Virus record (IMG/VR): IMGVR_UViG_2711768038_000004
DNA length: 27,608 nt
Direction: 5' to 3' (one strand)
DNA from: a virus
Lineage: Duplodnaviria > Heunggongvirae > Uroviricota > Caudoviricetes
Part shown: positions 1,285 to 27,608 of the stretch, piece after piece
Layout: each line of letters starts with the position of its first letter
Numbering within the stretch: the first letter of the stretch is position 1
Notes under the pieces: model-generated
Seen by the model: the letters and a program-made list of their open reading frames with translations, nothing else
What the model was told of the DNA's origin: nothing
Databases searched by the model: none
Program-made: the position numbers and the translations under genes

Positions 1285-1886
1285 AATTCACAGGTGTTTT
1301 TTCCCATCCTGTGGTTTCCTTGGCGTTTTCTAGGTTTTTTCAGATAGTTGCATTTTTTTAAAAGCATCCTAAGTTCGATCTCAGTGTCTATCTGGGGCCT
1401 ATTTCTGTCCCATATATGCCCCAAAAAACTCCCCAACAGATAAGTAGTTTTTTCATGGATTTACGCGTAAAATCAATAACGGCTGGAAATCATTCAATAC
1501 TCGCACTATCGAAAAATTTACCAGCCAACCGCAGCACGTTCTTGCATAAGGCGTGTCTGCGGTTTTTCAACTATTCAGATACATCACTCCCATCACATTC
1601 ATTCCTCCGCATCAAAGGCATATAGGCTATATCACCTTGATATTTTTCTTCTTCAGATAAAAATTGTTATCTATGTATACTTTTAAACCCAATCCGTGTA
1701 GAGTCTCTGCATAAGATAGTTTGCAGTTGCCACTTCAGATTGCGCCATAAACCGCCTGATTTTTGCCGCCACCTGTTAGCATTCCTGTATACCTGAAACG
1801 ACAATGTTTATCTACGAACTTTAAGAACACCCAAGATAAAAATTGTCAACTATATCATATATAACACATTACTAATTCGAGGCTAT

Positions 1887-2000
1887 ATGAACAGCATACT
1901 GATAATCACTTCTCTCCTTATCATATTCAGCATTTTTAGTCATGCCCTAATAAAATTAGGGATTGGCATATCCAATAACCCAGACAAAACCGATGTATAA
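1887..2000 (+). CDS. Hypothetical 37-aa hydrophobic peptide ([37 protein letters not shown])
   Basis: ATG at 1887 preceded by GAGG (1879-1882); single predicted TM helix; stop at 1998-2000. Below the ORF-track size cutoff. Confidence 0.25.
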
Positions 2001-2068
2001 GTCAACATATCCTGAATCAGACATACAATATCGCAATGAAAATCAATAATATTTTAAGGAATATCTTC

Positions 2069-2302
2069 ATGAAATCAAAAGACACCCTAAAGTGGTTCCC
2101 TGCGCAGCTTCCTGAAGTAAGAATTATCCTAGGGGATGCTGTAGTGGAAGTAGCAAAACAGGGAAGACCTATCAATACCAGAACATTGCTTGATTACATT
2201 GAAGGAAACATAAAGAAAAAATCATGGCTGGATAACAAAGAATTATTACAAACAGCGATATCAGTTCTTAAAGACAACCAAAATTTAAATGGTAAAATGT
2301 AA
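2069..2302 (+). CDS. ydfK: Qin prophage protein YdfK (YnaE paralogue), 77 aa
   Basis: ORF 2036-2302; internal start MKSKDTLKWF at 2069 with AAGGAA 8 nt upstream; sequence recognised as YdfK/YnaE. Confidence 0.75.
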   Translation: MKSKDTLKWFPAQLPEVRIILGDAVVEVAKQGRPINTRTLLDYIEGNIKKKSWLDNKELLQTAISVLKDNQNLNGKM

Positions 2303-2618
2303 TATAACAAACTTACTTTTTTATCATTTTTCCACTTTAACAACATTTTGCTCCACTTTTCCACGACCAAACAAATTGAAATCTGGTTAAAATAACACGC
2401 AACACTATTCTTCTTCCTTGAGTCTGCCCGGAACTCGAAAAACAAACCGAGTTAAAGCCATTTTTCACAAAATCGATTTTGGGTCTCACCAAAATTACGG
2501 GGTTGCATACGCATTCGTTTATTTTCGAACGTGTACATACAAATATGCACAAAAATAATCAAAATTATTTTCTGAGATGCATTATGATATGAACACCAAT
2601 TTCGTATAGAGTCTCACT

Positions 2619-3209
2619 ATGTCTCGAATTTTTGCTTACTGTCGGATATCAACGCTGGATCAGACCACCGAAAATCAACGCCGGGAAATCGAAAGTGCAG
2701 GTTTTAAAATCAAACCTCAGAAAATAATCGAAGAACACATTAGCGGCTCAGCAGCAACCAGTGAGCGTCCTGGTTTTAACCGGTTGCTTGCTCGCCTGAA
2801 ATGTGGTGATCAATTGATTGTGACAAAACTGGATCGCCTTGGTTGTAATGCAATGGATATCAGGAAAACAGTGGAACAACTGACCGAAACAGGTATCAGA
2901 GTGCATTGCTTAGCATTGGGGGGCATTGACCTGACCAGTCCAACAGGAAAAATGATGATGCACGTAATTTCAGCAGTCGCTGAATTTGAACGAGACCTTT
3001 TACTTGAACGCACTCATTCCGGGATAGTAAGAGCCCGCGGCGCAGGGAAACGTTTTGGTCGACCACCTGTGTTAAATGAAGAACAGAAACAGGTGGTATT
3101 CGAACGAATTAAGTCAGGTGTAAGTATAAGTGCCATTGCCCGGGAATTCAAAACCTCGCGGCAAACCATTTTAAGAGCCAAAGCAAAACTTCAGACACCT
3201 GACATATAA
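2619..3209 (+). CDS. pinQ: Serine recombinase (resolvase/invertase family) PinQ, 196 aa
   Basis: N-terminal catalytic motif [15 protein letters not shown], resolvase core, C-terminal HTH; recognised as PinQ/PinR. Confidence 0.85.
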
Positions 3210-3306
3210 AAAATAATCTCGGTGTGAGATGCTTTACGTCTTCCAAGCCCCCTTCCTTGCCGTAAATGGAAAGATACATCTAATTATAGAATTTATATGT
3301 TTTACC

Positions 3307-3882
3307 CTACGGCAGTGCTGGCCATTCAATATCCTGTGCAGTTGATGTATCAACACGGTTCAGCAACACCCGATACTTTTTCCAGGCTTCCAGCAATGAG
3401 GTTTCTTCCTCCGTTGCGATTTCCAGATCTACAGCATCCTGAAGTGGCGCTATATGCTCACTGGCTACCTGCATCAGGCTGTTTTTTGTTTCTTCCGCCT
3501 CCCGGATCCGGAACAGTTTTTCTGCTTCCGTATCCTTCACCCAGACTGTACCGTTCCACTTCTGAAACTCCCCTTCCGGCGATAACCAGGTAACATTTTC
3601 CGGTAACGGACCGAGTTCAGAAATAAATAACGCGTCGCCGGAAGCCACGTCATAAACCATTTTACCCCGATGATCTTCAACGAGATGCCACGATGACTCA
3701 TCACTGTTGAAAACAGCCACGAAGCCAGCCGGAATATCTGGCGGTGCAATATCGGTACTGTTTGCTGGCAGACCTGTATGAGGCGGAATATATGCATCAC
3801 CTTCACCAATAAATTCATTAGTTCCGGCCAGCAGATTATAAATTTTTATGGTCCGTGGTTGTTCACTCATTCTGAATGCCAT
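3307..3882 (-). CDS. tfaQ: Tail fibre assembly protein TfaQ, 191 aa
   Basis: Recognised Tfa-family sequence; start overlaps the stop of the upstream tail-fibre ORF (3882). Confidence 0.8.
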
Positions 3883-4985
3883 TATGCAAGCCTCACAATA
3901 TAGTTAAATGCGATGTTTTTGACGGTGTTTTCCGCGTTACCAGCAGCGTTAACGGTGATGGTGTGTCCATGTGAACCAATCGCAACGGAGTGCGTATGAG
4001 CACCAATACCCACAGTATGTGCGTGTGCACCTGCGCTTGCAGCAGTACCCGATACAGAGTGCGTATGAGCGCCTGCAGAAGAAGTGTTAACACTGTATTT
4101 AGAATAATCAGATGCTCCACTTCCCGGAGCACCACTGGAACCACCTGAAACAAATGTCATCGAATGGGTATGTGCACCGGCTGAAGCAGCCGTACCGCTA
4201 ACACTATGGGTATGCGCCCCGGTGTTATTCGTGGATTTAGTGCCGTAATCAAACGACGATGTGGTTTTCGTCCCCAAATCCGTACTGGATGCGCTGGCGC
4301 TGTGGGTATGCGATTTAATGCCGTCCTGTTCCTGAGACAATACGGCCCGACCACTGGCAGGTTTGCCCTTAATCGTCCAGCCACGCATATCAGGGATCAC
4401 GCCTGACGGATAAGCGGCTGCAAGTTTCGGGTAAGCAGATTTGTCAAAAGTCTGCCCCTGCATCAGGGCATAACCAGACGGAACGGTATCTGATGGCCAC
4501 GGGATTGGTGCGCCGACTGGGTAGCTTTCTGGTGGAAGATTTTTCGAGGTATAAACTTCTGCCCAGTCTTCCTCAAAACCATAACCGTCTCTTGAAGAAC
4601 GGTAGAACAGACCACCATTTCTGTAATGCGCCTTCATCTGCAGGGTCCGGCAACTTCCGACTCCGGTATAGAAGTTAACCAGAATATAGCTGTCGCCAGA
4701 GCGGGTGACATTGTAAGCACCTGATTCGGCATTCCAGGGAATAGTCCCTGGCTGGAGATCTGTCTCGCTGGCCTGCCGCAGTTCTTCAACTTCCCGGCGC
4801 AGCTTTTCGTTCTCAATTTCAGCATCCCTTTCGGCATACCATCTTATAACGGCGGCAGAGTCATAAAGCACCTCATTACCCTTGCCACCGCCTCGCAGAA
4901 CGGGCATTCCCTGTTCCTGCCAGTTCTGAATGGTACGGATACTCGCACCGAAAATGTCAGCCAGCTGCTTTTTGTTGACTTCCAT
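3882..4985 (-). CDS. stfQ: Chimeric ORF: terminase small subunit Nu1 N-terminus (about 82 aa, HTH) fused in frame to a side tail fibre C-terminal fragment with HxH repeats
   Basis: The first ~80 residues ([47 protein letters not shown]...) match lambda Nu1 as I recall it. After 'DLQPGTI' (junction near 4739/4740) the sequence switches to tail-fibre motifs ([11 protein letters not shown], repeated [20 protein letters not shown]). Confidence 0.8.
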
Positions 4986-5200
4986 TGCTCATTCCACGGA
5001 CAAAAACAGAGAAAGGAAACGACAGAGGCCAAAAAGCTCGCTTTCAGCACCTGTCGTTTCCTTTCTTTTCAGGGGGTATTTTAAATAAAAACATTAAGTT
5101 ACGACGAAGAAGAACGGAAACACCTTAAACCGGAAAATTTTCATAAATAGCGAAAACCCGCGAGGTCGCCGCCCCGTAACCTGTCGGATCACCGGAAAGG
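4986..5200. promoter_or_regulatory. Lambda-like cos site (cosB with R sites next to Nu1, cosN about 5163-5174, cosQ-like sequence beyond)
   Basis: The reverse complement of 4986-5200 reads like the lambda left end joined to the lambda right end (GGGCGGCGACCTCGCGGGTTTTCGCTATTTATGAAAATTTTCCGG..., preceded by ...CGGTGATCCGACAGGTTACG). Confidence 0.7.
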
Positions 5201-5373
5201 ACCCGTAAAGTGATAATGATTATCATCTACATATCACAACGTGCGTGGAGGCCATCAAACCACGTCAAATAATCAATTATGACGCAGGTATCGTATTAAT
5301 TGATCTGCATCAACTTAACGTAAAAACAACTTCAGACAATACAAATCAGCGACACTGAATACGGGGCAACCTC

Positions 5374-5607
5374 ATGTCAACGAAGAACAGAACCCGCAGA
5401 ACAACAACCCGCAACATCCGCTTTCCTAACCAAATGATTGAACAAATTAACATCGCTCTTGAGCAAAAAGGGTCCGGGAATTTCTCAGCCTGGGTCATTG
5501 AAGCCTGCCGCCGGAGACTGTGCTCAGAAAAAAGAGTTTCTTCTGAAGCAAACAAAGAAAAGAGTGACATTACTGAATTGCTCAGAAAACAGGTCAGACC
5601 AGATTGA
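5374..5607 (+). CDS. ynfO: Qin prophage protein YnfO, 77 aa
   Basis: ORF with start MSTKNRTRR; recognised sequence. Confidence 0.7.
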   Translation: MSTKNRTRRTTTRNIRFPNQMIEQINIALEQKGSGNFSAWVIEACRRRLCSEKRVSSEANKEKSDITELLRKQVRPD

Positions 5608-6075: not shown

Positions 6076-6226
6076 ACCATAACGTCCGGCTTCTCTCACT
6101 CCTGAGCCGGACTGCATTGGTTTAATAAAAACCATCAACAATTGTGATTTAGATATTCGGAACCATTCAAATATAACAAAACCCCGTAAAAACGAGGTTT
6201 ATGGATAAATTTTATTATTGAATACA

Positions 6227-6875: not shown

Positions 6876-7073
6876 CACTTTTTTAAATCCAACGACAGAC
6901 GGCTGGCATTTAAGTATTGTGAAATATTATCAAATGTAATCATCATTGATTTACAAAAGATACATTTTGCCCCGAAAGGATTCATGTCAGAAACATCAAA
7001 AGATGATGTTCTATACTGGGAACCATGACAACACGGGCATCTAAAGTGAATATGGTTTGTAATATTGTCTACC

Positions 7074-7286
7074 TCAAAGCGCCACTACATGAACAGCGGC
7101 AGGACCTTTAGGTCCGTTCTCAATACCAAATTCAACTTCCTGATTCTCAGTTAATGTTTTGAAATCGTTGCTCTGAATTGCTGAGAAATGGACAAACACA
7201 TCTTTGCTGCCATCTTTCGGCGTGATGAAACCAAAACCTTTTTCAGGGTTAAACCATTTCACTAAACCAGTCATTTTGTTAGACAT
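7074..7286 (-). CDS. cspI: Cold shock protein CspI, 70 aa
   Basis: [23 protein letters not shown]... RNP1/RNP2 motifs of the CspA family. Confidence 0.9.
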
Positions 7287-7648
7287 AATTATTACCTTTT
7301 GAAGAAATTAGCCCTTGGGCAGAATGGTCCGAAAAAAAATATCAGAGAGAAAAACCAACAAGGAAATCTCAAGAGGTACAAATAATAAAATTATAACAAT
7401 GACTGCTTCAGATAAATTTGTAACAAACCAGAACACCATTAACGCATGATTAACCACCCATAGCAAGGATTACTTTTGTAAAGAAAAACACAGCAATGAA
7501 AGAATAGCTTTATTTATTAATAAAACGTGTCATTCTGATTAAGACCTTTTATCTTACCCTTAAGATTTCAGGAATTTTGGCTCATGGAAGAGTCCTTTTT
7601 ATTTAAATTTTACATTCCGCGATGTAAATGTTCCGATTTAATATTACC

Positions 7649-8988: not shown

Positions 8989-9204
8989 TTACTCTCCTCT
9001 CGCAGCCTTACGCCTGTCTTCTTTAATCTTGAAATAAAGATTTGTCAGATACGTCAGCAGGCCAAAAACCAGGCTACCCAGCACACCGATTGCAGCCCAC
9101 TGTGACGGAGTTACTTTATCGAGTAACTGCAATGCCCAGAAACCAGCATTACCCGCCGATGTGCCATAGGCAACACCTGTTGTTAACTTATCCATTGATT
9201 TCAT
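8989..9204 (-). CDS. essQ: Pinholin S21-like holin/antiholin, 71 aa
   Basis: MKSMDK dual-start motif and two TM helices ([25 protein letters not shown]); the ORF-track entry (to 9279) over-extends the N-terminus. Confidence 0.8.
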
Positions 9205-9674: not shown

Positions 9675-9957
9675 TTGAGATTGTGGTGCTTTTTGTGGGA
9701 GTCATCCACTTACGCACTTTGTTTTGCCATGCCAGCAGTTAGCTTCTGCTGTAAAACTATTCATGCAGCAAACCTGCACTTCACCACAATGGTTAGCATA
9801 CTTTTCCTGATTAAGATTTTGCCAAATATGCTAGCCATTGTTTCATGTATTGGACCTCCTTACTTTTTATTAAAGAGATCCAATATTCACTACTCTGTCC
9901 GTATCTCTACTCAGGCATCAGCCTTCTTCGTTATCGTATACAGACGAGCGATGAATT

Positions 9958-10173
9958 TTAATCAGTAATGATGACATTTGCTGCTGCAGGACCTTTAGCA
10001 CCACTCTCTATAGAGAAGGTAACCTTTTGACCTTCAAATAAGGTTCGATAATTATCATTCTGAATCGCAGAAAAATGCACAAACACATCTTTACTACCAT
10101 CAACAGGAGAAATAAAGCCGAAACCTTTATCAGCGTTAAACCATTTTACTAAACCAGTCATTTTATTTGACAT
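9958..10173 (-). CDS. cspB: Cold shock protein CspB, 71 aa
   Basis: [23 protein letters not shown]... Confidence 0.9.
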
Positions 10174-10473
10174 TCTACATTCCTTAACTTGAGCCTTTCG
10201 GCATAAATGGTTTGCATAACAGAAACGACTTCGTACTTAATTGGAGAGACTCAAAGAAGGAATAAGTGAATAACACCTGAAATGAGAACTGCTTTAGTAA
10301 ACTACTTCGTATATCGTCTGTTCTTCAAACCGACGCAATCATTAACGCATAGTTGAACATATGAAGCAATGTTTATTTTAGACATCCAGCCATCTTCAAC
10401 CCCATCAAAAAACTATAGCTTTCTTCAGGAACGTGTGTATAGTGCGCCAAGTTATCAGTATTAAGGAATTTTT

Positions 10474-17106: not shown

Positions 17107-17440
17107 GAAAAATCCCCCAGAGAATTGTCTGGGGACATTTTAGAATGGTTCAAAGGGGACATTACAGCTTGGTGTTAACAATAGCCTGCTTCTCCGTGCC
17201 TTTCGGCACGTAAGAGGCTAACCTACATGTGTCTAGCATGAAATTGGCCTCAGATTAATGTTAAGCGTCTTGCAGGACGCGTAATGTTAACTGGGGCTTT
17301 TCTCTATCTGCCGTTGGTGTCCATGCCCGAGGCAGATAGCCTCAAGCACCCGCAGTCATTCTACTTAACTAAGATTTCCCCGCAAACCGTTTTTGTCCAG
17401 CACAGTAAATATCCAACTAAACCAATGGAGTTCGCTGTAT

Positions 17441-20608: not shown

Positions 20609-21056
20609 TTGCTTTTTCTATAAGTTCGTCAGTTTCACGATCCACTACGGCAGGATCAGCAAAAAGCAGTCCGGACTCCACCACATCGCCATATTCTTTG
20701 TTTAACCCGGCGATCATGCACGTGATGCTTTTTCCGTCAGTAATTTCACGATACAACCTGAAATCATTAATCCGGATAGCCTCCATAATTGCAGGCACTA
20801 GCGCCGTGAACTTTTCACGCTTATCCCTGGTGTCGATAGCCTTCCAGCGTTCAAATATCTTCACTCGATTAACGCCAAGCGCTCGCTGATCAATCGCGCC
20901 ACCTTCATATGTGACACGCTGAACATCGATGTTCGGGCGCTCTTTCAAAGCCCAGAATGCTTCAGTGATTAATATCGTCGCCTGCTCCTGTGTCATTCCT
21001 GGTCGACATATCCAGGCATCCAGAGCCTCACGAGCCTGTTCAGGAGTGATTTTCAT
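20535..21056 (-). CDS. YdaT-like protein (CII-position regulator of YdaS/YdaT-type switches), 173 aa
   Basis: Resembles Rac YdaT as I recall it (...ERWKAIDTRDKREKFTALVPAIMEAI...); located directly after the Cro-like gene. Confidence 0.55.
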   Translation of the reverse strand: MKITPEQAREALDAWICRPGMTQEQATILITEAFWALKERPNIDVQRVTYEGGAIDQRALGVNRVKIFERWKAIDTRDKREKFTALVPAIMEAIRINDFRLYREITDGKSITCMIAGLNKEYGDVVESGLLFADPAVVDRETDELIEKAIAFKLAYRQQYQQKAGWNYEPSFC

Positions 21057-21270
21057 TGTTCAACCGCCCCGCCCGCTTCGTCTTACGATATTCATCATAA
21101 ACTTTGGGATCATACTGAAGCTCCCCGCCAGATGCCTCCTGTAGACGCATCGCGCGACCTTCGGGAACTAAATCCCCTTTCCAGCTATAAAGCGAAGCCA
21201 AACGAATACCTGCTGCTTGTGCAAGTTTTGTTTTTGAACCGAAATACAAAAGAGCGTCAGTTTTAAGCAT
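21040..21270 (-). CDS. dicC: DicC, Cro-like repressor, 76 aa
   Basis: MLKTDALLYFGSKTKLAQAAGIRLASLYSWKGD... Confidence 0.85.
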   Translation of the reverse strand: MLKTDALLYFGSKTKLAQAAGIRLASLYSWKGDLVPEGRAMRLQEASGGELQYDPKVYDEYRKTKRAGRLNNENHS

Positions 21271-21353
21271 TTAAAACACCTTTATTGTTAGTCATAACTA
21301 ACAAGATAGATGTTAACAAAAACATAGTCAATACGATTTAGCATTAGCTAACT
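21271..21353. promoter_or_regulatory. Divergent dicA/dicC promoter-operator region (Oc): palindromes TTGTTAGTCATAACTAACAA (21286-21305), TGTTAACA, TTAGCattaGCTAA
   Basis: Inverted repeats in the 83-bp interval between divergent repressor genes. Confidence 0.6.
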
Positions 21354-21761
21354 ATGGAAACAAAAAATTTAACTATCGGCGAACGCATCAGGTATCGTCG
21401 GAAAAACCTCAAACACACCCAAAGGTCTCTTGCTAAAGCCCTGAAAATCTCCCATGTGTCTGTATCACAATGGGAACGGGGTGATAGTGAACCTACAGGG
21501 AAGAACCTTTTTGCCCTCAGCAAAGTATTGCAATGCTCACCAACATGGATTCTATTTGGCGATGAAGACAAGCAACCAACACCACCTGTTGAGAAGCCAG
21601 TTGCCTTATCCCCCAAAGAACTAGAGCTCCTTGAGCTGTTTAATGCACTGCCAGAATCAGAACAGGATACCCAGCTCGCCGAAATGCGAGCTCGAGTAAA
21701 AAACTTCAATAAACTCTTTGAAGAATTACTAAAAGCCCGTCAGCGGACAAATAAAAGATAA
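21354..21761 (+). CDS. dicA: DicA, CI-like HTH-XRE repressor, 135 aa
   Basis: METKNLTIGERIRYRRKNLKHTQRSLAKALKISHVSVSQWERGD... Confidence 0.9.
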   Translation: METKNLTIGERIRYRRKNLKHTQRSLAKALKISHVSVSQWERGDSEPTGKNLFALSKVLQCSPTWILFGDEDKQPTPPVEKPVALSPKELELLELFNALPESEQDTQLAEMRARVKNFNKLFEELLKARQRTNKR

Positions 21762-21795
21762 CATCATCAATGAGTTATCTTTTACCACATCAATT

Positions 21796-21850
21796 ATGTT
21801 AGCTATAGCATACAAAATCACTTGACCGATATGTTAGTCATGGCTAATCT
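21796..21850 (+). promoter_or_regulatory. Promoter of the ydfABC-dicF-dicB operon (TTGACC-N17-TAATCT, 21822-21850) with DicA-operator-like sites ATGTTAGCTATAGCAT and ATGTTAGTCATGGCTAA
   Basis: Hexamers and TGTTAG(T/C)(C/T)AT repeats, the second overlapping the spacer; the same motif occurs in Oc. Confidence 0.5.
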
Positions 21851-21927
21851 TGTTTGCATCAACACACCGCACGGTGTTCTCAGCAAACAGTTCCGCTACC
21901 CCAGCGTTAAGGGGAAATGAGGTCAGC

Positions 21928-22083
21928 ATGGATACTATCGATCTTGGCAACAACGAATCTCTGGTGTACGGCGTGTTTCCAAACCAGGACGGCACGTTCA
22001 CCGCAATGACGTATACCAAAAGCAAAACGTTTAAAACCGAAAATGGTGCCCGTCGCTGGCTGGAAAGAAACTCAGGTGAGTGA
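21928..22083 (+). CDS. ydfA: YdfA, 51 aa
   Basis: MDTIDLGNNESLVYGVFPNQDGTFTAMTYTKSKTFKTENGARRWLERNSGE. Confidence 0.8.
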   Translation: MDTIDLGNNESLVYGVFPNQDGTFTAMTYTKSKTFKTENGARRWLERNSGE

Positions 22084-22084
22084 T

Positions 22085-22213
22085 ATGGATTTCGACACAA
22101 TCATGGAAAAGGCTTACGAAGAATACTTCGAAGGCCTTGCCGAAGGCGAAGAAGCTCTCAGCTTCAGTGAGTTTAAACAGGCGCTTTCCAGTTCGGCAAA
22201 ATCTAACGGCTGA
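22085..22213 (+). CDS. ydfB: YdfB, 42 aa
   Basis: Translated by hand: MDFDTIMEKAYEEYFEGLAEGEEALSFSEFKQALSSSAKSNG. Confidence 0.7.
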   Translation: MDFDTIMEKAYEEYFEGLAEGEEALSFSEFKQALSSSAKSNG

Positions 22214-22242
22214 TAAGCGAAACAGCACCGCGAGGAATCAGT

Positions 22243-22461
22243 ATGCAGAAACGAGAACCCGTCATCATCGCGCCAGACTATACCGATGATGAACTTTATG
22301 AGTGGATGCGCCAGAAAATTAATGCAGCGCAGGATCTGAAATGGGCTAATGAAGCCAGGGCTAAGCAGGCTGAAAATCTGTCCGCTCTGGAGCAGGATAT
22401 CACCAATCTGGAAAAAGCAGCGGCATTAAGCATTGCCAGAATGATTACATACCCGCGTTAG
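22243..22461 (+). CDS. ydfC: YdfC, 72 aa
   Basis: MQKREPVIIAPDYTDDELYEWMRQKINAAQD...; GAGG RBS. Confidence 0.8.
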   Translation: MQKREPVIIAPDYTDDELYEWMRQKINAAQDLKWANEARAKQAENLSALEQDITNLEKAAALSIARMITYPR

Positions 22462-22801
22462 TAGCTAATCAACAAAGCTAAGGTTAGTAATTAAGGAGTT
22501 CTCCACGGGTGAGGTGGAGTGCGTGCGCCGGACACGGGTGCGCATCCGGAACTGACAGTTTACTGAAAGGATATTTCCCTGAAAAGTCAGACCATAACGC
22601 GAAAGCGCACGGCGAGGTAGCTGGTTCATAGATAGCCTGTCGTTAAATTTTCGTCGACCGTGCGCTTCCGGTTGTGGCAACCCGCGAAATGGCGCGGCGG
22701 TAAGTATGGCGGGGTTATTCCTTCCCCGTTGAGGACACCGGGTTGTCAGGTTGACCATACGCTTAAGTGACAACCCCGCTGCAACGCCCTCTGTTATCAA
22801 T

Positions 22802-22854
22802 TTTCTGGTGACGTTTGGCGGTATCAGTTTTACTCCGTGACTGCTCTGCCGCCC
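22802..22854 (+). ncRNA. dicF: DicF small RNA (53 nt; antisense inhibitor of ftsZ and other targets), processed from the operon transcript
   Basis: Matches my recollection of DicF (UUUCUGGUGACGUUUGGCGGUAUCAGUUUUACUCCGUGACUGCUCUGCCGCCC) followed by a U-run. Confidence 0.8.
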
Positions 22855-23028
22855 TTTTTAAAGTGAATTTTGTGATGTGGTGAATGCGGCTGAGCGCACG
22901 CGGAACAGTTAAAACCAAAAACAGTGTTATGGGTGGATTCTCTGTATCCGGCGTTAATTGTTAACTGGTTAACGTCACCTGGAGGCACCAGGCACTGCAT
23001 CACAAAATTCATTGTTGAGGACGCGATA

Positions 23029-23217
23029 ATGAAAACGTTATTACCAAACGTTAATACGTCTGAAGGTTGTTTTGAAATTGGTGTCACTATCAGTAACCCA
23101 GTATTTACTGAAGATGCCATTAACAAGAGAAAACAAGAACGGGAGCTATTAAATAAAATATGCATTGTTTCAATGCTGGCTCGTTTACGTCTGATGCCAA
23201 AAGGATGTGCACAATGA
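23029..23217 (+). CDS. dicB: DicB cell-division inhibitor, 62 aa
   Basis: MKTLLPNVNTSEGCFEIGVTISNPVFTEDAINKRKQERELLNKICIVSMLARLRLMPKGCAQ. Confidence 0.85.
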   Translation: MKTLLPNVNTSEGCFEIGVTISNPVFTEDAINKRKQERELLNKICIVSMLARLRLMPKGCAQ

Positions 23218-23405
23218 ATTCAGCATTTGTGCTTGTTCTGACAGTTTTTCTTGTTTCCGGAGAGCCAGTTGATATTGCAGTCAGTGTTCACAGGACAATG
23301 CAGGAGTGTATGACTGCAGCAACCGAACAGAAAATTCCCGGTAACTGTTACCCGGTCGATAAAGTTATTCACCAGGATAATATCGAAATCCCGGCAGGTC
23401 TTTAA
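23214..23405 (+). CDS. ydfD: YdfD, 63 aa, small membrane/lysis protein; start overlaps the dicB stop (ATGA)
   Basis: MNSAFVLVLTVFLVSGEPVDIAVSVHR... Confidence 0.8.
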   Translation: MNSAFVLVLTVFLVSGEPVDIAVSVHRTMQECMTAATEQKIPGNCYPVDKVIHQDNIEIPAGL

Positions 23406-23497
23406 AACAGTTCCGTAATAAATATCCGGTTTCATTCTTATATGCCAGCAATGGCAGGGATTTGTTCATCCTTAAATCTGTCATGAGGTTAAAACAA

Positions 23498-25969
23498 ATG
23501 AGTAAAGTCTTTATTTGCGCCGCTATTCCTGACGAACTGGCAACAAGGGAAGAAGGCGCTGTGGCTGTAGCCACAGCCATTGAAGCTGGCGACGAACGCC
23601 GTGCTCGAGCAAAATTTCACTGGCAATTCCTGGAACATTATCCGGCTGCTCAGGACTGCGCTTATAAATTTATTGTCTGCGAGGATAAACCTGGCATACC
23701 CCGCCCTGCCCTCGATTCATGGGATGCTGAATATATGCAGGAAAACCGCTGGGATGAGGAGTCTGCTTCTTTTGTCCCGGTTGAGACTGAATCCGATCCG
23801 ATGAACGTCACTTTTGACAAGCTGGCCCCTGAAGTACAGAACGCTGTCATGGTTAAGTTCGACACATGTGAAAACATCACCGTTGATATGGTTATTAGCG
23901 CACAGGAATTGTTGCAGGAAGACATGGCAACATTCGACGGACATATCGTTGAAGCGTTGATGAAAATGCCAGAAGTTAACGCCATGTATCCGGAGCTTAA
24001 GTTGCACGCCATTGGGTGGGTTAAGCATAAATGTATTCCTGGTGCTAAATGGCCCGAAATTCAGGCAGAGATGCGCATCTGGAAAAAACGTCGCGAAGGT
24101 GAACGCAAGGAAACCGGAAAATACACGTCTGTTGTTGATCTCGCCCGCGCCAGAGCCAATCAACAGTACACTGAAAATTCAACAGGAAAAATCAGCCCGG
24201 TCATTGCTGCCATTCATCGCGAATACAAGCAGACATGGAAAACACTGGATGACGAACTGGCCTACGCTCTCTGGCCTAGTGATGTGGATGCCGGAAACAT
24301 TGACGGCAGCATCCATCGCTGGGCAAAAAAAGAAGTTATCGACAACGACCGCGAAGACTGGAAGCGTATCTCGGCATCAATGCGCAAACAGCCTGATGCC
24401 CTTCGCTACGACCGCCAAACTATTTTTGGCCTTGTCCGTGAGCGTCCGATCGACATTCACAAAGATCCCGTAGCACTGAACAAATATATCTGCGAATACC
24501 TGACGACAAAGGGCGTGTTTGAGAATGAAGAAACAGACCTGGGCACTGTTGATGTTCTCCAGTCATCAGAAACACAAACTGATGCAGTGGAAACTGAGGT
24601 ATCTGATATCCCAAAAAATGAAACCGCGCCGGAAGCTGAACCATCTGTAGAGCGTGAGGGGCCGTTCTATTTCCTCTTCGCAGATAAGGACGGAGAAAAA
24701 TACGGTCGCGCAAACAAACTCTCTGGTCTGGATAAGGCACTGGCTGCTGGCGCCACTGAAATCACAAAAGAAGAATATTTTGCCCGAAAAAATGGCACAT
24801 ACACGGGCTTACCGCAAAATGTAGATACCGCTGAAGATTCAGAACAACCAGAGCCGATAAAAGTTACCGCTGACGAAGTAAACAAAATTATGCAGGCAGC
24901 CAATATCAGCCAGCCTGACGCCGATAAGTTGCTTGCTGCATCACGTGGTGAATTTGTTGAAGGGATTAGTGACCCGAATGATCCGAAATGGGTTAAGGGG
25001 CTCCAGACCCGCGATTCTGTGAACCAGAACCAGCATGAATCGGAACGGAACTACCAAAAAGCGGAACAAAACAGTCCAAATGCGTTACAAAACGAGCCAG
25101 AAACGAAACAGCCTGAACCAGTAGCGCAACAGGAAGTGGAAAAAGTCTGCACCGCCTGCGGTCAGACCGGCGGCGGCAACTGCCCTGATTGTGGCGCGGT
25201 GATGGGCGACGCAACATACCAAGAAACATTCGATGAAGAGTATCAGGTTGAAGTTCAGGAAGATGATCCGGAGGAAATGGAAGGCGCTGAACATCCACAC
25301 AAGGAGAACACTGGCGGCAATCAGCATCACAATAGCGATAATGAAACTGGCGAGACGGCAGATCACCCAATTAAGGTGAACGGTCATCACGAAATCACAT
25401 CCACCAGCAGGACGTGTGACCATCTAATGATCGACCTTGAAACCATGGGAAAAAATCCTGATGCCCCGATCATCTCAATAGGTGCAATATTTTTCGATCC
25501 GCAAACCGGAGATATGGGACCGGAATTTAGTAAGACTATCGATCTGGAAACTGCTGGCGGAGTCATTGATCGGGACACCATTAAATGGTGGCTTAAGCAA
25601 TCACGCGAAGCGCAATCTGCCATTATGACCGATGAAATCCCGTTAGATGATGCACTGTTACAATTGCGAGAATTTATCGACGAAAACTCCGGTGAATTTT
25701 TTGTTCAGGTTTGGGGAAATGGAGCCAACTTCGACAACACGATTTTGCGCCGTTCATACGAACGGCAGGGGATCCCCTGCCCGTGGCGTTACTACAACGA
25801 TCGCGATGTACGCACAATCGTTGAGCTGGGGAAAGCCATAGACTTCGATGCCAGAACGGCTATTCCATTCGAAGGTGAGCGCCATAATGCACTTGATGAC
25901 GCCCGTTACCAGGCAAAATACGTTTCAGTTATCTGGCAAAAACTGATCCCGAGTCAGGCTGATTCTTAA
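23498..25969 (+). CDS. ydfE: YdfE-like large early-left-operon protein (823 aa), intact, with C-terminal DEDDh 3'-5' exonuclease domain and an internal Cys4 zinc ribbon
   Basis: Start MSKVFICAAIPDE with GAGG RBS (ORF track begins at 23462). Motifs DLETMG, GNGANFDNT, HNALDDARY; CTACGQTGGGNCPDCG. Confidence 0.75.
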   Translation: MSKVFICAAIPDELATREEGAVAVATAIEAGDERRARAKFHWQFLEHYPAAQDCAYKFIVCEDKPGIPRPALDSWDAEYMQENRWDEESASFVPVETESDPMNVTFDKLAPEVQNAVMVKFDTCENITVDMVISAQELLQEDMATFDGHIVEALMKMPEVNAMYPELKLHAIGWVKHKCIPGAKWPEIQAEMRIWKKRREGERKETGKYTSVVDLARARANQQYTENSTGKISPVIAAIHREYKQTWKTLDDELAYALWPSDVDAGNIDGSIHRWAKKEVIDNDREDWKRISASMRKQPDALRYDRQTIFGLVRERPIDIHKDPVALNKYICEYLTTKGVFENEETDLGTVDVLQSSETQTDAVETEVSDIPKNETAPEAEPSVEREGPFYFLFADKDGEKYGRANKLSGLDKALAAGATEITKEEYFARKNGTYTGLPQNVDTAEDSEQPEPIKVTADEVNKIMQAANISQPDADKLLAASRGEFVEGISDPNDPKWVKGLQTRDSVNQNQHESERNYQKAEQNSPNALQNEPETKQPEPVAQQEVEKVCTACGQTGGGNCPDCGAVMGDATYQETFDEEYQVEVQEDDPEEMEGAEHPHKENTGGNQHHNSDNETGETADHPIKVNGHHEITSTSRTCDHLMIDLETMGKNPDAPIISIGAIFFDPQTGDMGPEFSKTIDLETAGGVIDRDTIKWWLKQSREAQSAIMTDEIPLDDALLQLREFIDENSGEFFVQVWGNGANFDNTILRRSYERQGIPCPWRYYNDRDVRTIVELGKAIDFDARTAIPFEGERHNALDDARYQAKYVSVIWQKLIPSQADS

Positions 25970-26041
25970 TGTTCAACTGTCGCCGGTTGTGACTGGTATT
26001 CTGCAACCGGCGCTCGTCTGATGTAAGAGATAAAGAAATCG

Positions 26042-26293
26042 ATGAGCGAAGTAATCATGATTGTCTCTCCCGGCAAATGGGTATCCGAAGAGCAGTTAAT
26101 TGCGCTGAAAGGAATAAAAAAAGGTACGTTAAAAAAGGCCCGGGAAAAATCGTTTATGGAAGGAAGGGAATATAAGCATGTCGCTCATGACGGTATGCCA
26201 TGGGATAACAGTCCATGCTTTTACAACCTGGAAGAAATTGATCGCTGGATTGAGCGCCAGGCATCAGCGAGACCAAGACGTCATCTTACTTGA
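26042..26293 (+). CDS. Excisionase-like protein (Xis), 83 aa or shorter
   Basis: Small basic protein immediately upstream of int; architecture inference. Confidence 0.55.
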   Translation: MSEVIMIVSPGKWVSEEQLIALKGIKKGTLKKAREKSFMEGREYKHVAHDGMPWDNSPCFYNLEEIDRWIERQASARPRRHLT

Positions 26294-26312
26294 CTAAAAG
26301 CCACACTAACTA

Positions 26313-27608
26313 ATGAGAGAAGTTGAAATGAAATATCCGACAGGCGTGGAAAACCATGGAGGGAAATTACGTATCTGGTTTGTTTATAAAGACGTAAGAG
26401 TCAGGGAAAATCTGGGGGTTCCTGACACAGCAAAAAACAGGCGCGTTGCAGGTGAACTACGCTCCTCTGTTTGTTACGCAATAAAAACTGGTGTTTTCGA
26501 CTATGCAAAACAGTTTCCCTCCTCACGCAATCTGGAAAAATTTGGTGAGGCCCGACAAGATTTAACCATAAAAGAACTGGCTGAAAAATTTCTGGCACTG
26601 AAAGAAACTGAAGTCGCCAAAACATCACTCAACACATACCGTGCCGTCATCAAAAATATCCTGAGCATAATCGGTGAAAAAAATCTTGCCTCATCGATTA
26701 ATAAAGAAAAATTACTGGAGGTTCGTAAAGAGTTACTGACTGGATACCAGATCCCCAAAAGTAACTATATTGTTACACAACCAGGGAGATCGGCTGTAAC
26801 TGTAAATAATTACATGACAAATCTTAACGCCGTGTTCCAGTTTGGTGTTGATAACGGTTACCTGGCAGATAATCCGTTTAAGGGGATCTCGCCATTAAAG
26901 GAATCAAGAACCATTCCGGATCCTCTTTCGCGGGAAGAATTTATCCGTCTTATCGATGCGTGCAGAAATCAGCAAGCAAAAAATTTATGGTGTGTTTCTG
27001 TTTATACTGGAGTTCGCCCTGGTGAGCTGTGTGCACTTGGATGGGAGGACATAGATCTGAAAAATGGAACAATGATGATCAGGAGAAATTTAGCAAAAGA
27101 CCGTTTCACGGTACCAAAAACACAGGCGGGAACCAATCGGGTCATTCATCTTATTAAGCCAGCAATCGACGCTCTCCGGAGTCAGATGACATTAACGAGA
27201 CTGAGCAAAGAGCATATCATTGATGTTCACCTCAGAGAGTATGGCAGAACAGAAAAACAAAAATGCACCTTTGTTTTTCAACCTGAAGTGTCAGCGAGAG
27301 TAAAAAATTATGGTGACCATTTTACCGTTGACTCAATAAGGCAGATGTGGGACGCAGCGATAAAACGTGCCGGACTCCGCCATCGAAAATCATATCAGTC
27401 GAGACATACTTATGCCTGCTGGTCGCTGACAGCTGGTGCTAACCCGGCATTTATAGCAAACCAGATGGGCCATGCAGATGCGCAAATGGTATTTCAGGTA
27501 TACGGAAAATGGATGTCTGAAAACAATAATGCACAGGTAGCTTTGTTAAATACACAGTTAAGCGAGTTTGCCCCAACCATGCCCCATAACGAAGCAATGA
27601 AAAATTAA
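26313..27608 (+). CDS. intQ: Tyrosine integrase (IntR/IntQ-type with N-terminal arm-binding domain), intact; stop is the last codon of the window
   Basis: N-terminal PTGVE..G.LRIWF motif; C-terminal catalytic residues (R..., HTYACW, VYGKW Tyr). Confidence 0.85.
   Translation: MREVEMKYPTGVENHGGKLRIWFVYKDVRVRENLGVPDTAKNRRVAGELRSSVCYAIKTGVFDYAKQFPSSRNLEKFGEARQDLTIKELAEKFLALKETEVAKTSLNTYRAVIKNILSIIGEKNLASSINKEKLLEVRKELLTGYQIPKSNYIVTQPGRSAVTVNNYMTNLNAVFQFGVDNGYLADNPFKGISPLKESRTIPDPLSREEFIRLIDACRNQQAKNLWCVSVYTGVRPGELCALGWEDIDLKNGTMMIRRNLAKDRFTVPKTQAGTNRVIHLIKPAIDALRSQMTLTRLSKEHIIDVHLREYGRTEKQKCTFVFQPEVSARVKNYGDHFTVDSIRQMWDAAIKRAGLRHRKSYQSRHTYACWSLTAGANPAFIANQMGHADAQMVFQVYGKWMSENNNAQVALLNTQLSEFAPTMPHNEAMKN

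Follow-up and report, generated by a model that had tools for sequence, protein, structure and literature searches.

The window analysed here, a stretch of 27,608 nucleotides, contains a minus-strand open reading frame (ORF) that begins as the lambda terminase gene nu1 and ends as a tail-fibre gene, beside a cos site. This arrangement raises the questions of how the two gene ends came to be joined and whether the neighbouring cos could still serve in packaging. In the reading that we hold to be very probable, the locus belongs to a defective lambdoid prophage of the Qin type, inserted in ydfJ, and forms its late end, the chimeric ORF is the in-frame by-product of an illegitimate deletion of ~21.7 kb with 2-nt microhomology, and the adjoining cos is intact in its sequence and of lambda specificity.

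Identity and layout of the prophage

The window was 99.99% identical to Escherichia coli strain ES5. Its first 1284 nucleotides (1-1284) consist of a truncated ydfJ, and rspB lies beside int in ES5, in agreement with the Qin insertion site in ydfJ between ydfI and rspB. The gene content was also that of Qin, with pinQ, tfaQ, ynfO, ydfO, gnsB, cspI/B/F, relBE, hokD, dicBF and dicA/C all found in the ES5 annotation and in the Rfam matches to DicF, sok and cspA. The genes are arranged in the order ydfJ', ynfT, ydfK, pinQ, tfaQ, stf', 'nu1, cos, ynfO, ydfO, gnsB, cspI, Rz/lysozyme/holin, cspB/F, Q, relBE, hokD, flxA, O, ydaT, dicC/dicA, the dicB operon, exo, xis and int. Two att repeats bound an element of 26,370 bp, which carries pseudogenes and an IS fragment. 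The features that mark its ends and the region downstream of the chimeric ORF are as follows:

1276-1286: att core GAAATCCATAA, an 11-bp direct repeat at the end of ydfJ'; the second copy lies 38 bp past the window end
2619-3209, plus strand: pinQ, serine recombinase gene
3307-3882, minus strand: tfaQ, an intact tail-fibre assembly gene directly downstream of the chimera
26327-27607, plus strand: intact integrase gene, with an intact excisionase gene before it; the counterpart in K-12 Qin is a pseudogene

Across 20700-27607, int, xis, the exonuclease gene, ydaT and the O-type replication gene were intact, and in K-12 Qin these genes are absent or pseudogenes.

K-12 Qin (pinQ-tfaQ-stfQ'-nohA-cos-ynfO-ydfO) resembles the window element in its insertion in ydfJ, its flanking genes, the loss of the head and tail genes from nu1 to stf, and a retained lambda-like cos, and the two are 98.6-99.9% identical outside the junction. 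They differ at the junction itself, since nu1 of K-12 Qin extends to lambda bp 720, encodes the 189-aa NohA and is joined, out of frame, to another position in another stf allele. Furthermore, intQ of K-12 is inactive and no excision was detected there (PMC3105296), whereas int and xis of the window are intact.

A chimeric ORF at a deletion junction

The chimeric ORF and its parts have the following positions:

3882-4985, minus strand: chimeric ORF nu1'-'stf of 367 aa, which PGAP treats in ES5 as two pseudogene fragments
4740-4985, minus strand: nu1 codons 1-82, which encode the whole winged-helix DNA-binding domain of lambda TerS, with 80 of 82 residues identical (K48R, A75T)
3882-4739, minus strand: 3' part of stf, the last 285 codons and the stop, with gp37_C, Collar and a T4 gp37-like tip, including seven HxH motifs
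4740-4741: deletion junction, with a 2-nt microhomology (AA on the plus strand, TT on the minus strand) assignable to either parent

An earlier note on this DNA had described the ORF as Nu1 for about 82 codons, followed in frame by a tail-fibre C-terminus with HxH repeats. ORF calling, Pfam, the PDB matches and the seven HxH motifs (aa 226, 258, 272, 307, 321, 330 and 339) all bear this out. In Pfam, Phage_Nu1 covered aa 1-85 (E 6.9e-50), gp37_C aa 81-147 and Collar aa 158-205, together with fibre repeats. By sequence, aa 1-85 matched 1J9I and 6HN7 in the PDB, the TerS DNA-binding domain, and aa 153-367, encoded by window 3882-4526, matched the receptor-binding tip of T4 gp37 (2XGF, E 1.2e-89). 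The similarities of the chimera to nu1 and stf far exceed chance. The junction, which had been put near 4739/4740, proved to be exactly there: Nu1 codon 82 (ATT) occupies 4742-4740, and the stf frame continues from CCC at 4739-4737. The join makes a perfect palindrome on the minus strand, CCAGGGA-CTAT-TCCCTGG (7 bp with a 4-nt loop).

The extent of the loss was read from phage 2H10 (LR595862), an intact relative that shares with the window its Qin-type late region (cspB/F, gnsB, stf-tfa-pin), the stf-tfa-invertase module included. In the DNA alignment, window 1443-4741 corresponded to 2H10 26218-22855 and window 4740-5536 to 2H10 1180-384, and the 21,674 bp of 2H10 1181-22854 were absent from the window. 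The loss took two-thirds of nu1 (its 3' part), the genes A, W, B, C, D, E, FI, FII, Z, U, V, G, T, H, M, L, K, I, J and lom, and the first 2.5 kb of stf. In 2H10 and lambda, in contrast to the window, nu1 and the stf tip are separated by all 21.7 kb of this morphogenetic block. A tblastn search of the window with 23 morphogenetic proteins of 2H10 gave matches only to the N-terminus of Nu1, to Stf (aa 829-1117) and to Tfa. Both the alignment gap and this search confirm what the earlier note had claimed of the head and tail genes, namely that the whole block is lost.

An illegitimate deletion that used the two shared nucleotides would have begun at nu1 codon 83 and ended near stf codon 832, and the two gene stumps would have come into frame by chance, with odds of 1 in 3. 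Site-specific recombination of the Pin type at the junction was considered and rejected, as no inverted repeat connects this position with the pinQ-tfaQ spacer and the window contains no e14 pix-like site with three mismatches or fewer. The stf breakpoint, GTT|CCCTGG (window 4737-4744), is common within 3 nt to another chimera, lambda E(1-149)'-'stf (L019 6690-6700; L020 3275-3285), which occurs at the same locus in two draft genomes and in no complete genome. This allele has the layout nu1(1-34)'-'C/nu3-D-E'-'stf, and over 4.7 kb, from stf to ydfJ, its flank and the window disagree at only 2-3 nt (99.95% identical). The L020-type allele was nevertheless rejected as the direct parent, because only nu1 codons 1-34 are present in it and codons 35-82 are missing. 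The E|stf junction may have been present in a common ancestor, with a second deletion stopping at precisely this point; otherwise the position is a hot spot. The shared breakpoint is not predicted by random deletion and argues against a purely random event.

As to function, residues 1-82 of the 181 of Nu1 are left, and the C-terminal domains for oligomerisation and gpA binding are gone. Stf has kept 285 of its ~1,117 residues, the distal quarter, and has lost its N-terminal tail-attachment and shaft regions. The PGAP labels in ES5 are 'DNA-packaging protein, missing C-terminus' and 'phage tail protein, missing N-terminus'. No sigma-70-like site that could give the chimera its own promoter was found on the minus strand upstream of 4985, in the stretch that separates the ORF from ynfO. 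We regard the chimera as most likely a pseudogene. Read-through could still express the in-frame fusion, with its complete DNA-binding domain and the intact tfaQ.

The cos site beside the chimera

The elements of cos lie upstream of the chimeric ORF in the lambda arrangement (lambda coordinates in brackets):

5175-5510, minus strand: cosQ-side flank, 336 bp identical to lambda 48167-48502, overlapping the opposite-strand gene ynfO in its 5' part
5163-5174, minus strand: cosN, with the 12-nt cohesive-end sequence GGGCGGCGACCT, identical to lambda; sole copy in the window
5125-5157, minus strand: I2 spacer (bp 18-50), identical to lambda; cosN-cosB spacing unchanged
5110-5125, minus strand: cosB R3 (bp 50-65), altered by C53T at window 5122; bp 55-63, the segment contacted by TerS, unchanged
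5051-5066, minus strand: cosB R2 (bp 109-124), identical to lambda
5010-5025, minus strand: cosB R1 (bp 151-166), identical to lambda

Lambda 1-436 aligned to window 5174-4740 with 97.7% identity, and lambda 48141-48502 to window 5536-5175. The window was thus like lambda on the cosQ side and in cosN, I2, R2 and R1. The run of identity extended from lambda 48167 through bp 52, so that cosQ, cosN and I2 were covered, with no indel in bp 13-52; cosQ is unchanged, because its 336-bp flank is identical to lambda. Four differences from lambda were found in cosB, namely C53T, A73G, T102C and delG138, of which the last three fall between the TerS and IHF sites. A further difference, A188G, adjoins the nu1 start codon. 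In K-12 Qin, cosB has G54A, G134A, T145G and T176G, whereas the window has C53T instead.

The base replaced by C53T is C in all three lambda R sequences, and some affinity for lambda TerS might be lost through it. The TerS contacts of R3 and its known defective mutations are at bp 55-63 (PMC9026076), a segment that does not include C53T, and a spacing requirement holds between cosN and cosB (PMC4856287). All four cosB differences occur together in the plaque-forming phage 2H10, a further likeness between it and the window, and three of them also occur in other viable lambda-like phages. The TerS of 2H10 differs from that of lambda only at residues 75 and 132, with residues 1-74, the DNA-binding domain, being equal. 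Since the four differences co-occur in a viable phage whose TerS DNA-binding domain is that of lambda, nothing disabling is apparent in cosB. The cohesive-end sequence, cosQ, I2 with its spacing, and an R3-I1-R2-R1 series of lambda type were all found, as in a cos of lambda specificity. The intact cos that the earlier note had placed at about 5163-5174 therefore survived the alignment to lambda: every change in it is also carried by viable phages, no disabling change was seen in cosN or cosB, and the site appears intact by sequence.

Frequency of the allele and related junctions

With a 121-bp probe across it, the junction was found in 1 of 5,426 complete genomes, and this genome was ES5. The identical 367-aa protein was encoded on at least eight contigs of independent NCBI and Logan assemblies, in the Qin context each time. 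The junction could in principle be a chimeric join made by an assembler, for which the rarity of the allele speaks and nothing more; this explanation has next to no probability and is refuted by the same product and gene context in a complete genome and at least eight independent contigs. The allele is therefore real, and it is confined to a small lineage.

The same architecture with other junctions was found in K-12 Qin, in YPE10 (Qin locus) and in TW14425 (DLP12-like prophage). In a protein search, about 20 of the best 120 matches were other in-frame chimeras, in which the same Stf tip is fused to part of Nu1, GpA, portal, capsid E, Z, J, Lom or DUF1441. Because such chimeras make up so many of these matches, Stf-tip fusions are regarded as ordinary debris of lambdoid prophage decay, and a third of the junctions made at random would be in frame. 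In the other Qin alleles examined as DNA, the K-12-type and YPE10 ones, nu1 and stf are out of frame. The cos was present in every Qin allele examined, a retention that is biased by ascertainment, all probes having contained cos.

The nu1 endpoint CTGATA| (lambda bp 706) was re-used with three stf partners in chimeras at the DLP12 and Qin loci (L021, L022 and L023 at ~3007; L024 at ~2378). The sequence P0093 corresponded to the K-12 junction with a loss of 22 nt between ATA repeats, by which stf comes into frame with nu1.

A Qin-type prophage that lacks the head and tail genes and keeps nu1', stf', tfa, pin and cos is already known and has long been annotated in E. coli. The window locus is a rare allele of this cryptic-prophage remnant and represents an ordinary stage of prophage decay. 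Its discovery value is small, since the architecture is long annotated and PGAP already calls both halves of the ORF pseudogenes. It has a modest value as an example of prophage decay, in which one locus exists in many deletion states and cos is kept in every allele examined, with the above bias.

Possible exchange at cos

Comparison of near-identical Qin alleles revealed an uneven distribution of their differences. The window and the K-12-type allele had nine mismatches in 6,961 bp, six of which were in 135 bp of cosB (4988-5122), a clustering with p ~4e-9 in a binomial calculated by hand for a region picked post hoc. Against the L020 allele, 20 mismatches were counted in 1,838 bp, 19 of them in 4988-5366. 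The cos-region mismatches between near-identical alleles are concentrated about 100-fold, and the variant bases are those of different lambda-like phages. These sequence comparisons suggest that the cos region is a patchwork to which other cos sequences have contributed by exchange, and that exchange with incoming lambda-like phages may be ongoing. Such a patchwork fits the recombination of lambda with the defective prophage DLP12, in which 10 of 19 sequenced junctions were next to cos (PMC3945230). There is a hint in this that the window cos may not be inert.

Possible packaging from the retained cos

Packaging of lambda starts with the binding of TerS and IHF and nicking by TerL, followed by translocation from the nu1 side (PMC4669245, PMC4856287). 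The terminases of lambda and 21 discriminate more than 1000-fold against each other's cosB, and the 434, phi80 and N15-type enzymes take lambda cosB (PMC4669245). Helper-started packaging at the window cos is plausible on this basis. In a cell in which a phage of lambda specificity is growing (with a lambda, 434, phi80 or N15-type terminase, not that of 21), TerS and IHF would bind R3-I1-R2-R1 and TerL would nick cosN. The DNA would then be threaded from the nu1 side, from 5163 downwards via stf', tfaQ, pinQ and attL into ydfJ and the neighbouring chromosome. As no second cos lies in cis, the outcome would be a dead-end particle, or a recombinant phage after a crossover in shared homology. For a lone chromosomal cos, the expectation of Feiss et al. 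is that the motor stalls at a full head, giving a tailless, non-infectious particle with adjacent host DNA, or a recombinant phage if a crossover occurs (PMC4669245, section 18).

Moving the element itself would need excision and concatemers, and a 26.4-kb unit would fit the lambda head poorly. The cos-to-cos unit after excision is 26,370 bp, which is 54% of lambda, and a dimer would be 109%. The lambda head packages about 78-105% of the lambda length, and both the monomer and the dimer of the element are outside this range.

The proposal of the earlier note that the prophage could be packaged in trans by a lambda-type or phage-21 helper accordingly stands in part. Initiation by a lambda-type terminase is plausible, and packaging in trans is an established concept from cosmids, passive-prophage assays and defective O157 prophages (PMC4669245, PMC2669165). 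A 21 helper was wrongly included and is expected to fail, because its terminase discriminates more than 1000-fold against a lambda-type cosB; the single cos would lead to a dead-end particle, and the lengths of 54% and 109% do not fit the head. The passive-prophage and cosmid systems of the Feiss laboratory are alike in having a cos of lambda specificity, no terminase of their own and a need for helper TerS and TerL (PMC4669245). However, their substrates have two cos in cis at a packageable distance, whereas the window has one chromosomal cos and a 26.4-kb unit. Cleavage of the retained cos in vivo, if shown, would be relevant to the ways in which cryptic prophages resident in a cell burden or nourish the phages that infect it. 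The older literature on the Qin cos reportedly includes lambda qin111, from Espion et al. in 1983, and terminase cutting of the E. coli chromosome, from Kotani et al. in 1992.

Alternative functional readings

The element might instead be a helper-dependent, satellite-like one that, with int, xis, exo, dicA/dicC, an O-type gene and cos, could excise, replicate and be transduced whole in capsids of lambda specificity. The annotation of int, xis and O as intact, the 11-bp att repeat around 26,370 bp and a cos intact by its letters are consistent with this, and defective lambdoid prophages of O157 Sakai that lack head or packaging genes are packaged and transferred (PMC2669165). The Sakai prophages share the head and packaging defects and yet are packaged via inter-prophage complementation; their packaging was, however, shown experimentally and in a strain with many compatible lambdoid prophages (PMC2669165). 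Cos-type PICIs of E. coli (e.g. EcCICFT073) are likewise integrated, carry cosN, lack capsid genes and rely on lambda-like helpers (PMC9026076, PMC6739421), but they have their own cosB and an Rpp that retargets the helper TerS, and no lysis or tail-fibre genes. The window element differs from them in its helper-type cosB and its prophage lysis and immunity modules, and its lambda-type cosB, its 26.4 kb and its holin, lysozyme, Rz and stf/tfa genes do not place it in this class. Both unit and dimer lengths lie outside the range that is usually packaged, and there is no sign of capsid-size redirection or of an Rpp-like function. The cosB is not satellite-specific, and pseudogenes and an IS fragment lie inside the element. 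In addition, K-12 Qin does not excise (PMC3105296), and the 121-bp junction probe matched a single site in ES5, which argues weakly against a second lambda-type nu1 there. A satellite-like element is therefore improbable, and the decaying Qin-type prophage is preferred.

A defensive use of the remnant is a still more doubtful reading. The chimera, the retained cos or both would then be an anti-phage device, in which the Nu1 DNA-binding domain competes for cosB, the Stf tip folded by TfaQ masks T-even receptors, and the chromosomal cos decoys terminase and proheads. The complete TerS DNA-binding domain and the intact tfaQ downstream agree with such a device, and there are precedents in StfE2, a chimeric tail-fibre protein of a cryptic prophage that blocks T2 adsorption (PMC12529663), and in the reduced yield of viable phage when packaging starts from a resident prophage cos (Feiss et al., PMC4669245). 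The allele is, however, rare and clonal, the K-12-type and YPE10 alleles are out of frame, and the chimera has neither a promoter of its own nor the signal peptide logic that receptor masking would call for. The presence of cos in every Qin allele examined, which would also fit a device, is biased by ascertainment, as every probe contained cos. It is likewise improbable, though conceivable, that a lambda-type cos was kept through repeated deletions for a role, either as a chromosomal decoy or cut site that diverts terminase and proheads, or as the packaging signal of a mobilisable variant (int, xis and O intact), with the chimera possibly aiding interference. Deletion during the decay of a Qin-type prophage remains the preferred explanation of the locus.

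Further sequence features

The window and ES5 differed in small details. The window's holin gene (8989-9204, minus strand) contains an additional A at 9034 and has an open frame of 71 aa, while essQ is annotated as frameshifted in ES5; in pinQ, one substitution was found at position 2721. At the Rfam gathering level, IS009 was matched within tfaQ (3341-3539), and two cspA thermoregulator leaders were matched at cspI (7047-7432) and cspB (9942-10334). The sok antitoxin RNA of hokD (17180-17351) and the DicF sRNA (22803-22854) were matched at the same level. A terminator-like hairpin lies at 6179-6200 on the minus strand, just 3' of gnsB; this hairpin and the opposing genes ydfO and ynfO set the late operon apart from the nu1'-'stf ORF.
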